DNA of 64,000 nucleotides from Oligoflexia bacterium (GTDB lineage Bacteria > Bdellovibrionota > Bdellovibrionia > JABDDW01). The position numbers and the translations under genes were made by a program. Shown here piece by piece: positions 34,329 to 42,143 of the stretch (position 1 is its first letter; every line of letters starts with the position of its first letter). The stretch spans positions 3,778 to 67,777 of the forward strand of contig JADLCR010000058.1 in assembly GCA_020847095.1 (NCBI GenBank). Reading direction: 5' to 3'. The notes under the pieces were generated by a model. The model was not told the origin of the DNA and ran no database searches. It saw only the letters and a program-made list of their open reading frames with translations.

Positions 34329-34344
34329 GGGCACCCCGGTTGCT
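34329..34344 (+). promoter_or_regulatory. Sigma54 promoter GGGCAC-CCCGG-TTGCT
   Basis: Matches TGGCAC-N5-TTGCW at all positions but the first, 27 nt before ATG 34372 (RBS GGAGG). Confidence 0.75.
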
Positions 34345-34371
34345 CTTGGCAGGCGTCGGAGGAACGTAACG

Positions 34372-35865
34372 ATGTCAAACGCAAAATTCCTATTCAGCCT
34401 GATACTCATTGTTTTCAGTTTTGAATCTCGAGGACTTAGTCAGACCGCACCAATCTGGGGGGTCAGCTTCCCTGATGAGTTAGTCAAGAAAATGCCGGTG
34501 ACTTTTCCAATCCGATCACAACTAACTTTCGGCGGCAATCTTTCGAGCGACTTTGCTGACTTCGTTGATTTCATTAAGACAGAATGCTCAGCTCGCTTTT
34601 CCATTCGCTACAAATCCGATCAAGTCTCCATCGATAAGGCCCTCGATCATCTAGAATCAAAGGCCCAAGTCTCCGAGCGCATTACTTGCACGCTTCCCTA
34701 TCTCGTTGGCCTGCTCAATCTATCGGGCAAGGCCCTTCAGCCACAAGCGTTGATCAACAACGAACGCTTTGATGTTCCATCCACCTTGGCGGCAGCCGCC
34801 CTAAATATGGATTTTGATGCCATAGGAAAAATTCCCCATGAAGGAGCTAAGCTTCTAACTCTTCTCAGGGCTGTATCAACCTCATGGAGTGCGATTTCTC
34901 AAATTTCAGCTCAGTGGTTCAACGCCTCCCAAAGATTTCACCCTCTCCGAGTTCGACAATTCCAGCCATGGCTGACAGAATTTTCTCCCCTCACCTCGTT
35001 GATTAAATACAACTTAGAACTTCCTTGCACCGATACAACGGGAGCGGAAACTTGTATTGCAACTCGTTTACAGATCTCTCGAATCGTTCAAATCAGTCTG
35101 ACTCGCATAAACTCCACTCCAGAAGTTAAAAGGTTTTTGGGTCTTCAAAATGCAGATAAGTTGGCCATGCTTCCGCAGCTGGTTCGTATCAATGGTCTTA
35201 CGGCGATTCTCAACTCCACACTCGATGATTACGGACCCTTCCAAGGAATCTGGTCAAATAACAAGGCCTTTCAAGATGAGTCGAGGCAATGGTCTTTTCT
35301 GAAAACTATTTTAAAACATTCGCTTCGTCTTCTTGATGTGCCCATGCTCGAGGCCATCGCCGATACGGCAAAACCAGGTCAGGAGTTTCTGAATATTGTA
35401 TTGAGCACCGCCAAGCAGGATCTCACCGCTCATGGAAATTTACTTTCCCAAAAAAATGATTCCGAAATTGCCGATATTGTAAATGCCCGAGCCCTTGCCT
35501 ACGGACTTAGAAGTACCTACGGCGGCGTTGGCGCTAAACCCGATCGGGACTTTCTTCGACGCTTTCTCAGCTTAAAGCAATTTGTCGATCTGCAACAAAA
35601 GGCTAACCAATATGGCTATAGCATTTGCTCCCGCTGCTCAGATCGACTCACACGTAAGGAGTCCCGCGACCTCGAAACAATGGTGGGAACCATCGCTCAA
35701 ATGATGGCTAACATTAAAGAGCTCATTCTTGTGGGTGCTGAGCCCATGCCTCCCAGCCCCGCAACCAATCCAACCGAACAAGAAGTCGTTAATAGAAATG
35801 CACAAACACTAGAACACATATTCGAACTAGTTCGCGCGAATATCGAACTAGCAAAGGAGAACTAA
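34372..35865 (+). CDS. Secreted, mostly helical hypothetical protein (operon gene 1)
   Basis: Signal MSNAKFLFSLILIVFSFESRG, 497 aa, no family recognised. Confidence 0.8.
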   Translation: MSNAKFLFSLILIVFSFESRGLSQTAPIWGVSFPDELVKKMPVTFPIRSQLTFGGNLSSDFADFVDFIKTECSARFSIRYKSDQVSIDKALDHLESKAQVSERITCTLPYLVGLLNLSGKALQPQALINNERFDVPSTLAAAALNMDFDAIGKIPHEGAKLLTLLRAVSTSWSAISQISAQWFNASQRFHPLRVRQFQPWLTEFSPLTSLIKYNLELPCTDTTGAETCIATRLQISRIVQISLTRINSTPEVKRFLGLQNADKLAMLPQLVRINGLTAILNSTLDDYGPFQGIWSNNKAFQDESRQWSFLKTILKHSLRLLDVPMLEAIADTAKPGQEFLNIVLSTAKQDLTAHGNLLSQKNDSEIADIVNARALAYGLRSTYGGVGAKPDRDFLRRFLSLKQFVDLQQKANQYGYSICSRCSDRLTRKESRDLETMVGTIAQMMANIKELILVGAEPMPPSPATNPTEQEVVNRNAQTLEHIFELVRANIELAKEN

Positions 35866-40075: not shown

Positions 40076-41790
40076 AGATTCTTTTATCATTGGTCTTACT
40101 TTTCTTTGTTCTGCCGAATCGAGTGCTCGCAGAGAACGACGTGCCTTTGCCCGCCCCTCCCAATTATGAAGTCAAAAATCTGGTTGTCACCAACAAGACC
40201 ATTACGACCTCAAACGGAGCAACCATTCACTATTCTTATTATTCCGTAACACTTCAAAGAAGTTCCGATGGAGCGATAGTCAACTACAGTCATCGAACTA
40301 TTTGGGATCAATTTGGAACACAGATTCATAGTGGCGGGGCCCAATCAGTTAGCATACCTGTTCTTGGCGGAGAGGGTTTTCTTACGACTGTAGAAGGAAC
40401 GACTGATCAAAAAGTCAGCGAAGCCTTTGGTCAACTGGCGCGCACTGAAGCCAGAAAGTTTAAAGAGCCAAAAAAGGTTATAGATTCGATCAATCGAGTA
40501 ACCGATGCTCCCAGTCTTGGAGACCTTATTTCGGCCGGTCAAGCTCAGAAGCGACTCCAAGACTCAATGAACGAAATGATCAACTGGGCACGGCAGCGAG
40601 AAGCCCAAATGGTTTCAGAACTGAGGCGACGGGATGAAAATGCACGCCAGTACCTCGATATTTCAAGTGGGCGCGCGGCGGCCTTATCTCAAAAGTCTGA
40701 CGCGGAGGCATCCGCCCAGGGGCTCGAACTTGCCGCCTCCTTGTTTCAAATTGCGACACTGAACTCATTTGATAAAGCTAAGGCCACTCAAGCCATAGAG
40801 GCACTGATGGACTCCAATGGAGAAGTCCAAATTAAGGCCCATTATGATAACCAAGGCTTTCAGAGTCAGCTCAAGTACATTGAAGGAGTCATTCAAAGTC
40901 GCCAGAGCATTAAAGCACTTCAGCTCCTTGAAGAAATATCCAATCCCGGAGTCACCGTTGAAGGTCCTGTATCTAAAGAAAAATTACTAGAAGGCTATGT
41001 GGATAAGTTTGGTCGGGCCTTGCTCGGGGGAACAACTTACTTCTTAAAAGGAAACTTCGAATCTACTCCGAAGGCTCAACAAGCTCAACTTATCAGGACT
41101 GCTAATCTGTACCAAGCCGTAGTCATTGAAAAACGGCAGTCCCTTAGAGATGTGAAACAGTCAAACCTCCTAATGGCGGGCGCCCTCCAACTTTATTTAG
41201 CGGAGCAGCACTTTAACGCAGGAAAAGTGGATTACGGAAACTATGCGCTCAATGCCTCAAAACAAATAGCCCTTTTTGTTGGTGGGATTATTTCTGGAGT
41301 CGGCTGGAGTCTCATCGAACTTGCTCCAAATGTTGTCATCGCTAACATGAATACCATAGCGGGCGGTATTAATAGCGCCATGCAAGACCCTAACTATTCT
41401 GCCAGAATCGTAGTTAAAACGATTGCAGCCATGGCAGACACCCTCAAACCTGAGCTAGGTGACTTAGCAAGAAAATATGCTCTCGAAATCACGCAAAGAC
41501 CCACCTACCAGGCAGGGCTTATCATAGGAAAGGTCATTACTGACGTTGCGATCGCACGCTACTTTTTGCAAACGAAAGCGGCAAACATCTATTGGCTCAT
41601 TGGCAAAGGTCTTGGAAATATTGGCCAGATCAAAACTTTCATGGATAAACCTGATTCAACAATCAATCCCATCTTAAATAGTATTTCCTCTGATCCGTTG
41701 CCCGAACTCTTGGCCTCAGAAACTGAAATTGGAAAATGGTTTCGTGAAGTCCTAAATCAAGAATCCAAAAAAATGGAGAATCAAAAATGA
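40072..41790 (+). CDS. Secreted hypothetical protein with pre-toxin-like C-proximal helices (operon gene 5)
   Basis: ATGA overlap, signal ...NRVLA, beta N-domain, coiled coil, then IALFVGGIISGVGWSLIEL and YQAGLIIGKVITDVAIA before a short C-terminal domain. Confidence 0.7.
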   Translation: MKILLSLVLLFFVLPNRVLAENDVPLPAPPNYEVKNLVVTNKTITTSNGATIHYSYYSVTLQRSSDGAIVNYSHRTIWDQFGTQIHSGGAQSVSIPVLGGEGFLTTVEGTTDQKVSEAFGQLARTEARKFKEPKKVIDSINRVTDAPSLGDLISAGQAQKRLQDSMNEMINWARQREAQMVSELRRRDENARQYLDISSGRAAALSQKSDAEASAQGLELAASLFQIATLNSFDKAKATQAIEALMDSNGEVQIKAHYDNQGFQSQLKYIEGVIQSRQSIKALQLLEEISNPGVTVEGPVSKEKLLEGYVDKFGRALLGGTTYFLKGNFESTPKAQQAQLIRTANLYQAVVIEKRQSLRDVKQSNLLMAGALQLYLAEQHFNAGKVDYGNYALNASKQIALFVGGIISGVGWSLIELAPNVVIANMNTIAGGINSAMQDPNYSARIVVKTIAAMADTLKPELGDLARKYALEITQRPTYQAGLIIGKVITDVAIARYFLQTKAANIYWLIGKGLGNIGQIKTFMDKPDSTINPILNSISSDPLPELLASETEIGKWFREVLNQESKKMENQK

Positions 41791-42143
41791 TGACTTCTTG
41801 TTCCCATTCAAAAATAAAATGGTCTTGGGAGTCCCCTCGCCTTAAAATTGGATGGCTTGTTTATTGGTCCTTTGCGCTTGTCGACGGCTTTTATCATTGT
41901 GACGCTTGCAAACAAAGACTAAACGTGTGGCAGCTTCCAAATTCTCTAAAAGCGGCTCTTGCCTTGCGAATTATTGCTCAAAGCACATTCACCATCAGGT
42001 TGCTGCAATTAAACTTAATGACATTTAAAACAGAGCTTCAAATGGCGGGAGCGATTTGGGGCATAACTTGCACTTGGTATTTGCTAAAGTGTTTTTACCT
42101 ATCCCTCGCAAAAGAAAAATTACCGAAGTCGTGCGTCAACTGA
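41787..42143 (+). CDS. Small putative membrane protein (operon gene 6, candidate immunity protein)
   Basis: GGAG RBS and ATGA overlap with gene 5, two Trp-rich hydrophobic segments, CDAC. The 3' end overlaps the convergent DoxX gene by 24 nt, so it could be spurious. Confidence 0.45.
   Translation: MMTSCSHSKIKWSWESPRLKIGWLVYWSFALVDGFYHCDACKQRLNVWQLPNSLKAALALRIIAQSTFTIRLLQLNLMTFKTELQMAGAIWGITCTWYLLKCFYLSLAKEKLPKSCVN

Follow-up and report, generated by a model that had tools for sequence, protein, structure and literature searches.

In this work, we describe a six-gene operon, g1 to g6, carried by a contig from an Oligoflexia bacterium of the Bdellovibrionota (GenBank assembly GCA_020847095.1, contig JADLCR010000058.1), within a stretch of 64,000 nucleotides (nt), hereafter the window, to which all positions refer unless another locus is named. 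The six genes, which form a true operon, are preceded by a sigma-54-type promoter element and recur, in the same order, in two further lineages. Their five large products carry export signals, and two of them, g4 and g5, contain in mid-protein a conserved segment rich in small, uncharged residues. Within the reach of the tools used, all six products appear to represent new families, and the architecture of the operon matches no described system. We tentatively read these features, at a confidence short of even, as those of an exported complex, gated by sigma-54, which would insert conditionally into a membrane; that the products form a complex, that this complex inserts, and into which membrane, we infer by analogy with known systems. 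A note made from the sequence letters, here called the original prediction, had proposed a multi-component pore-forming or polymorphic toxin system for the same genes.

Organization, distribution and promoter of the operon

The six co-oriented open reading frames (ORFs), listed in Table 1, are separated by a gap of 1 nt at the first junction and overlap by 8, 22, 4 and 4 nt at the following ones, an arrangement which reproduces, ORF by ORF and junction by junction, the translational coupling originally claimed. The start assigned to g3, on which the 8-nt overlap depends, is backed by the alignment of orthologues and by a GGGGG Shine-Dalgarno sequence; an alternative, longer g3 ORF begins at 36684. 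At the other end of the operon, the 3' end of g6 overlaps by 24 nt (42120-42143) the stop-proximal end of a convergent DoxX gene (42120-42554, minus strand), and no terminator-like hairpin was found between the two genes.

Relatives were searched exhaustively by HMMER, with g5 as the query against 1.84 billion cluster representatives, and the contigs carrying them were then retrieved. Only three relatives were found. The first, L001, carries all six genes, arranged as in the window and with similarly tight junctions, encoding products of 472, 280, 582, 539, 558 and 122 amino acids (aa), which share with those of the window, from g1 to g6, 29, 20, 34, 30, 29 and 24% identity; this locus and its near-identical sisters (L009 to L012) come from JGI metagenomes of the soil or water type and from one Logan run. 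The second, L002 (the same as L007), is a contig of a metagenome-assembled genome (MAG) of a Bdellovibrionia bacterium (GCA_038216925.1), and also holds the six genes, two of which are interrupted: g1 (877-2172) is split into a 61-aa N-terminal ORF and a 331-aa ORF, and g5 (6148-7873) into ORFs of 490 and 138 aa, lying in different frames. These interruptions may reflect either real decay or errors in an assembly of 6x coverage.

The third relative is a decayed 3' end of the operon, found in four metagenome contigs (L003 to L006; 10001-10900 in L003), where it adjoins fragments of rve-type transposases. The L003 remnant consists of a 139-aa C-terminal fragment of g5, marked by an internal deletion and a frameshift, of a 61-aa ORF with the g5 tail motif ETKIGKWFREFL, and of a broken g6; the product of the 139-aa ORF recurs in all four contigs. 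The remnant ORF and an intact operon (L009) are both present in one sample, 3300056673.

A survey of synteny in related genomes had been suggested along with the original prediction, and g1 to g6 indeed keep their order and tight junctions in L001 and L002. The flanks differ in every lineage: in the window, genes for a pyridoxal phosphate (PLP) decarboxylase and an Exo_endo_phos enzyme lie upstream, and DoxX and MsrBA genes downstream; in L001, a trypsin-like protease gene and small unknown genes are found upstream, and phosphatase, lactonase and RND efflux genes downstream; L002 is flanked by sugar-nucleotide genes. Since the same order is found in three lineages with unrelated flanks, the six genes are regarded as a self-contained, co-inherited module. 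Around the operon, searches for flanking repeats, tRNA genes and Rfam families were negative, and BLAST revealed no paralogues of its genes elsewhere in the window.

A scan of a genome collection (GTDB species genomes) detected the operon only in the Bdellovibrionia MAG, and no further copies were found in two metagenome scans, in one viral-contig scan or by tblastn against plasmids. Word-index protein searches, carried out with g4, with a two-sequence g3 profile and with a five-sequence g5 profile, returned the window's own proteins only. An exact look-up shows that the searched collection does hold the L001 and L002 orthologues; relatives at 20-35% identity are missed by this tool, and the lack of word-index relatives for g1 to g4 is therefore weak evidence. 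As a whole, the module has so far been seen in Bdellovibrionia-related lineages only, namely in three lineages and, as a decayed remnant, in a fourth.

The original prediction had placed a sigma-54 promoter ahead of the operon, and a -24/-12 element is found there, conserved at all three loci. In the window, GGCAC-N5-TTGC is matched only at 34330-34343, 26 nt upstream of the g1 start codon, 0.37 matches being expected by chance on both strands of the 64 kb. The sigma-54 consensus is TGGCAC-N5-TTGCW; gGGCACcccggTTGCT, at 34329-34344, fits it, with the -24 GG and the -12 GC exactly 10 nt apart, and is unique in the window. The longer pattern GGCNC-N5-TTGCTC has a single occurrence in the window, where 0.07 would be expected, and likewise in L001 and in L002, each time directly 5' of g1 and on the coding strand. 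The upstream regions of the three loci cannot be aligned, apart from two islands, corresponding to GGC(A/C)C-N5-TTGCTC and to the CGGAGG preceding the start codon.

Farther upstream, both the window and L001 feature two C(C/G)GCAA(A/G) motifs with a spacing of exactly 23 bp; counted from the GG, they lie at -88 and -65 in the window and at -90 and -67 in L001. In L002, CGGCAAT is found at about -87 and GCGCAAG at about -68, within an 18-bp palindrome. The GG-N10-GC geometry, the near-consensus GGCAC at -24 and TTGCT at -12, and the paired upstream motifs, spaced as is typical of activator sites, are all shared with operons governed by sigma-54 and an enhancer-binding protein. Control by sigma-54 is thus well supported by sequence conservation and would probably hold in vivo; the paired GCAA motifs may represent the binding sites of an activator.

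Table 1. Coordinates of the operon genes and associated elements in the window.
Feature	Position	Strand	Description
Upstream motif pair CCGCAAA (34242-34248) and CCGCAAG (34265-34271)	34242-34271	+	Candidate sigma-54 activator sites (upstream activating sequences, UAS), 23 bp apart
Sigma-54-type -24/-12 element GGCACcccggTTGCTC	34330-34345	+	Single GGCAC-N5-TTGC of the window
Shine-Dalgarno GGAGG of g1	34358-34362	+	CGGAGG kept in all three upstream regions
g1	34372-35865	+	497 aa, Sec-type leader, 6 Cys, no known family
g2	35867-36721	+	284-aa lipoprotein (lipobox VVSC, Ser at +2), no known family
g3	36714-38468	+	584-aa exported protein, leader ...ARA/QD, best conserved component
g4	38447-40075	+	542-aa exported protein, central uncharged hairpin, predicted helical almost throughout
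g4 hairpin, residues 215-266	39089-39244	+	52 residues, uncharged, Gly/Ala/Ser/Thr-rich, between invariant Cys161 and Cys296
g5	40072-41790	+	572-aa exported protein: small beta N-domain (low-confidence model), helical middle, Gly-zipper segment, tail ...ETEIGKWFRE...
g5 Gly-zipper, residues 399-424	41266-41343	+	Hydrophobic, conserved (IALFVGGIISGVGW...)
g6	41787-42143	+	118-aa small protein, ATGA overlap with g5

Exported products and their conserved features

In g1, g3, g4 and g5 the N-terminus is a leader of the n/h/c type, closed by a cleavage motif of small residues (Ala/Gly type); together with the lipobox of g2, these leaders account for the export signals originally ascribed to the five large products. 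Both the leaders and the lipobox Cys are kept in all orthologues. The five large products had been said to carry no recognizable motif, and database searches agree: for all six products, no match above noise was obtained in Pfam and NCBIfam (E <= 1), PADLOC or PHROGs, and the ten orthologues searched against Pfam gave no match at E <= 0.1. Searches of PDB sequences with single sequences, three profiles and the isolated g4 hairpin returned nothing. Comparison by hhalign of g4 with g5, g4 with g3 and g1 with g3 yielded probabilities not above 0.3, from profiles so shallow (3-4 sequences) that very remote paralogy is possible. No family of the type III, IV, VI or VII secretion systems (T3SS, T4SS, T6SS, T7SS) was matched among the scanned window ORFs of at least 150 aa, nearly all such ORFs, in line with the absence of their core genes stated in the original prediction. 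The literature searched for Bdellovibrio together with sigma-54 or pore-forming terms describes no such operon.

Other runs of large window ORFs also lack a Pfam match (13856-20583, 7 ORFs; 7417-12077, 3 ORFs; 55955-59745, 2 ORFs). Orphan genes abound in this genome, and orphan exported proteins are frequent in the phylum, which makes the orphan status of the operon less significant.

Among the first three products, g1, matched to its L001 orthologue with an E value of 9e-65, shares with its orthologues Cys residues, including C219/C228 and C419/C422, and motifs such as VRQxQPW. No other large product diverges as much as the lipoprotein g2; at the lipobox position its orthologues read VVSC (window), DFGC (L001) and TTAC (L002), and the lipobox Cys, C19, is invariant in the three of them, as are C69 and C120. 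In g3, which is 34% and 31% identical to its two orthologues, six Cys are invariant (C50, C122, C236, C272, C341 and C579; four of them in the N-terminal half), and the motifs GGPD and VWFV are shared. From the conservation of leaders, lipobox and Cys pattern, an oxidising environment outside the cytoplasm can be deduced, and the Cys conserved in g1 to g4 would fit disulfide-bonded proteins located there.

The most distinctive feature of g4 is its uncharged hairpin, 54% of which is made of Gly, Ala, Ser and Thr. Runs of 52, 49 and 48 aa, of similar composition, are found at the same position in the three orthologues, and the hairpin contains neither Lys nor Arg, the turn included; the uncharged Gly/Ala hairpin originally described is thus real, its length being 52 residues instead of the 46 claimed. 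The two Cys residues that bracket it are invariant, and the block corresponding to the hairpin exit region (251-300) is the most conserved of the protein (56%). Simple sums on the Hessa scale give about +2.6 kcal/mol for the first helix of the hairpin and, for the second one, +0.7 (window), +2.2 (L001) and 0.0 kcal/mol (L002). The L001 orthologue of g4 (8377-9996) is annotated by JGI as "phosphoribosylcarboxyaminoimidazole (NCAIR) mutase"; no family search backs this assignment, which looks like a misannotation.

AlphaFold2 models of g4 (from the single sequence) and g5 (from a four-sequence alignment) have a mean pLDDT of 44, too poor for a comparison of folds. At this low confidence, g4 is predicted to be helical nearly throughout, with several helices of 30-40 residues, and g5 to contain a helix of 44 residues (161-204), preceded by four beta strands located between residues 32 and 94. 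The long amphipathic helices claimed for g4 and the beta N-domain claimed for g5 appear in these models only, while the Gly-rich hydrophobic segment of g5 (399-424) is evident in the sequence itself. Both proteins feature a hydrophobic segment in mid-protein, with helices predicted, at low confidence, on either side.

In g5 the Gly-zipper VGGIIxGxxW is conserved, G405 and G409 being invariant in four sequences, and so is an amphipathic stretch P-x-(F/Y)-Q-x-G...G-(K/R)-(V/I)-I. Its hydrophobic segment totals +2.7 to +2.9 kcal/mol on the same scale, a value marginal for spontaneous Sec-mediated integration. In successive blocks of 50 residues, from the N- to the C-terminus, identity amounts to 30, 18, 22, 26, 26, 26, 36, 40, 30, 36, 20 and 41%, so that conservation peaks in the C-terminal half of the protein. 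The tail motif E-T-x-I-G-K/Q-W-F-R is found in the window, in L001 and in the L003 remnant; in L002 it takes the variant form G-T-Q-V-G-K-W-F-Q.

The large exported products could also build an adhesin, matrix, coat layer or similar surface or extracellular structure, made in response to a specific signal, in which Gly/Ala-rich segments would serve to pack proteins together and not to enter membranes. The export of all the large products, the abundance of conserved Cys in three of them and the lack of any detected enzyme or toxin motif are compatible with such a role, and the beta-type N-domains of g3 and g5, suggested by a low-confidence model and by a weak periodicity signal, could bind ligands; hydrophobic-moment profiles are too noisy for domains to be assigned. 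Neither repeats, nor adhesin or S-layer domains, nor sorting signals for a known surface pathway were found, though, and uncharged hairpins of 50 residues are atypical of such proteins. Overall, we consider a structural set of this kind quite improbable.

A small gene, g6, follows g5 at a start/stop overlap in the intact loci, and occupies a matching place in L001, where it encodes 122 aa, in L002 (106 aa) and in the L003 remnant. Its orthologues share an N-terminal motif, (K/E)I-x-W-x-x-P...KI, and up to three hydrophobic segments. Identity to the orthologues is low (24% and 18%; pairwise E only 0.004), and g6 diverges no faster than g2. The window copy, described in the original prediction as a membrane ORF, is itself weakly hydrophobic, since the 19-residue Kyte-Doolittle average nowhere reaches 1.5 and the best Hessa sum is +3.4 kcal/mol; the transmembrane segments of the orthologues are clear (-1.8 kcal/mol in L001, -0.7 kcal/mol in L002), and on the basis of these sequences g6 can be classified as a conserved small membrane protein. 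The g4 and g5 segments, at +2.2 to +2.9 kcal/mol in several orthologues, are less hydrophobic than the transmembrane segments of g6 in L001 and L002.

The position of g6 had suggested a polymorphic toxin, in which g1 to g4 would act as a delivery apparatus, g5 would carry a variable C-terminal toxin and g6 would provide immunity. Like polymorphic toxin-immunity modules, the operon features a small gene directly after that of a large exported protein, with overlapping start and stop at all loci, and g6 is poorly conserved. The resemblance ends there. The last six blocks of g5, at 36, 40, 30, 36, 20 and 41% identity, are generally better conserved than the N-terminal half (18-30%), and the tail is shared across the three to four lineages available, even by the decayed remnant; an invariant g5 C-terminus is the very outcome which the original prediction had named as refuting. 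As for g6, the protein is homologous across loci, has retained both the motif at its N-terminus and its membrane segments, and diverges no further than g2 does. Rhs/YD, LXG, PT-type, nuclease, deaminase or other known toxin and trafficking domains were not detected in the products (Pfam and NCBIfam; Pfam only for the orthologues). The polymorphic toxin hypothesis, contradicted by all three loci, was therefore abandoned as very improbable indeed.

Proposed mode of action and alternatives

According to the mechanism that we propose, the operon would be silent until an enhancer-binding activator fires the sigma-54 promoter, and translational coupling would then keep the five Sec-exported envelope proteins and the small membrane protein at roughly similar levels. 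In the envelope, g1 and g3 would be disulfide-bonded exported proteins, and the lipoprotein g2 might tether the assembly to a membrane. The largely helical g4 and g5 would each hide an uncharged Gly/Ala-zipper segment, a hairpin of 50 residues in g4 and a stretch of about 26 residues in g5. As these segments are only marginally hydrophobic, both proteins are expected to pass the Sec channel as soluble species; the segments would later enter a membrane from outside, to give a pore or a translocon, and g6 could act in the inner membrane as a factor for assembly or self-protection. Soluble export followed by late insertion would fit the Sec signals, the unequal hidden segments, the Cys pair, the gating by sigma-54 and the patchy distribution in a clade which includes predators. 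This distribution, together with a decayed remnant lying beside transposase fragments, is typical of dispensable weaponry and not of core envelope machinery.

Between them, g4 and g5 would share the work much as the subunits of multi-component alpha-pore-forming toxins do, one bearing a short segment for anchoring and the other a longer hairpin that spans the membrane. In pores of the ClyA family (ClyA; YaxAB/XaxAB; AhlABC/SmhABC; Hbl and Nhe; MakABE), a short hydrophobic helix-turn-helix inserted in a single leaflet and a longer spanning helical region reside on separate components, and g4 and g5 similarly feature two unequal hydrophobic elements on co-expressed subunits, comparable to such an anchor and spanning hairpin (PMC7979752). 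Like those of the family, both proteins are predicted to form long helices and contain an uncharged Gly/Ala-rich segment, which would need burial in the soluble state. The fold of the family consists of a tail, an elongated bundle of helices, and of a head domain which conceals a hydrophobic beta-tongue. In E. coli ClyA (hlyE, 2484-3395 of locus L008), a Gly/Ala-rich tongue (177-203) is bracketed by C87 and C285, as the g4 hairpin is by C161 and C296. Hbl and Nhe carry Sec leaders, as do g4 and g5. A pentapeptide, SYSIA, is common to the g4 hairpin (…ALVSYSIAMQ…) and to the ClyA tongue (…LIISYSIAAG…), a curiosity and not evidence.

Several differences separate the two groups. With 540-570 aa, g4 and g5 exceed the size of the known components (about 300-450 aa), the hairpin of g4, at 52 aa, is longer than that of ClyA (27 aa), and the operon adds three exported partners (g1 to g3) and a membrane protein. 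The HlyE and Bacillus_HBL families of Pfam were not matched by the products, and hhalign assigned a probability of 0.1 to the comparison of the g4 and g5 profiles with E. coli ClyA. Membership of g4 and g5 in the ClyA family is accordingly not supported by sequence or profile. Of the likeness to alpha-pore formers originally claimed, what stands is the resemblance of the conserved hairpins; kinship at the sequence or profile level and paralogy between components do not. Likeness to multi-component proteins with hidden membrane-insertion hairpins may, by analogy, indicate a possible mode of action, and not a family.

The translocators of T3SS (YopB/YopD, IpaB/IpaC, EspD/EspB) offer a comparable pairing: both partners are helical, the hydrophobic part being a two-helix hairpin in one and a single segment in the other, and they are produced jointly to perforate a target membrane. 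T3SS substrates have no cleavable Sec leader, in contrast to g4 and g5; no translocator family of Pfam was matched, and no T3SS genes were found in the window. On account of the Sec leaders and of the missing T3SS genes, g4 and g5 were excluded from this family.

A number of observations weigh against insertion of g4 and g5 into a target membrane. No similarity of the products to pore-formers was found by sequence, HMM or profile searches, and Foldseek comparison of the low-confidence g4 and g5 models with the PDB gave nothing at E <= 0.001, only generic long-helix proteins being returned. No paralogy was found among g1, g3, g4 and g5, in contrast to the subunits of Hbl, Nhe, Ahl and Smh, and we know of no pore-forming toxin operon containing a counterpart of g1, g2 or g3. 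No outer-membrane route is encoded by the operon. Differently from what is seen in operons governed by sigma-54 and an enhancer-binding protein, no gene for a GAFTGA-type AAA+ activator is encoded in the window, nor in L001 or L002. Finally, the second helix of the g4 hairpin, being near 0 kcal/mol in two of the three orthologues, could just stop transfer in the inner membrane of the producer.

This last point leads to the alternative of a resident envelope complex, unrelated to toxins, in which, once the leaders are cleaved, the g4 hairpin and the g5 segment would serve as stop-transfer anchors holding the two proteins in the inner membrane of the producer, with large domains exposed to the periplasm. 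The lipoprotein g2, g1 and g3 as soluble proteins of the periplasm, and the membrane protein g6 would join them in a structural, transport, adhesion or motility-associated assembly. The values of 0.7 (window) and 0.0 (L002) for the second g4 helix lie within the range of real transmembrane helices, and the presence in the set of a lipoprotein and of a small polytopic membrane protein, the lack of an encoded outer-membrane secretion route and of a detected toxin domain, and the fact that g1 to g3 have no counterpart in toxin operons all agree with a resident complex. Sigma-54, moreover, often drives envelope and appendage genes. Against it, a hairpin of 48-52 residues without Lys or Arg offers no positive-inside signal, and both the first helix and the second helix of L001, at +2.2 to +2.6 kcal/mol, are too polar for robust integration. 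Extreme rarity, and decay in one lineage, would also be unexpected for core envelope machinery. On balance, we view a resident complex as doubtful, albeit as the closest rival of the proposed mechanism, at a confidence only slightly lower.

Neighbouring genes and significance

Some genes of the window not belonging to the operon are worth mentioning. The 26290-29022 region contains a gene fusing multicopper oxidase and cytochrome c domains (NirK-like), followed by a gene encoding a NirV-like protein with an FGE-sulfatase domain and by one encoding a SCO1/SenC copper chaperone; as a whole, it looks like a copper nitrite reductase cluster. The Exo_endo_phos gene (31063-32274, minus strand), located about 2 kb upstream of the operon, encodes a 403-aa enzyme of the endonuclease/phosphatase/sphingomyelinase type, endowed with an N-terminal leader. 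This gene is not kept beside the operon in other lineages.

The rarity of the module, seen in three lineages and a decayed remnant among billions of proteins, limits its general importance, as well as the alignments and the structure predictions that can be derived from it. Even if it turned out to encode a resident envelope complex, the operon would still define six new protein families, inherited together and sharing a conserved regulatory architecture.

In its strongest form, the interpretation in terms of conditional membrane insertion would make of the operon a membrane-piercing machine of unknown type, Sec-dependent, multi-subunit and tethered by a lipoprotein, composed of five new families unrelated in sequence to ClyA toxins and T3SS translocators, which some Bdellovibrionia would switch on through sigma-54 to breach or permeabilise the membrane of another cell independently of any secretion system; we rate this full version as unlikely. 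Should g4 and g5 indeed insert into target membranes, they would constitute a new lineage of multi-component helical pore formers or translocons, unrelated in sequence to the known ones, and such a pore or translocon would be placed under a tight on/off sigma-54 switch, in a group of bacteria whose means of breaching cells are poorly understood.

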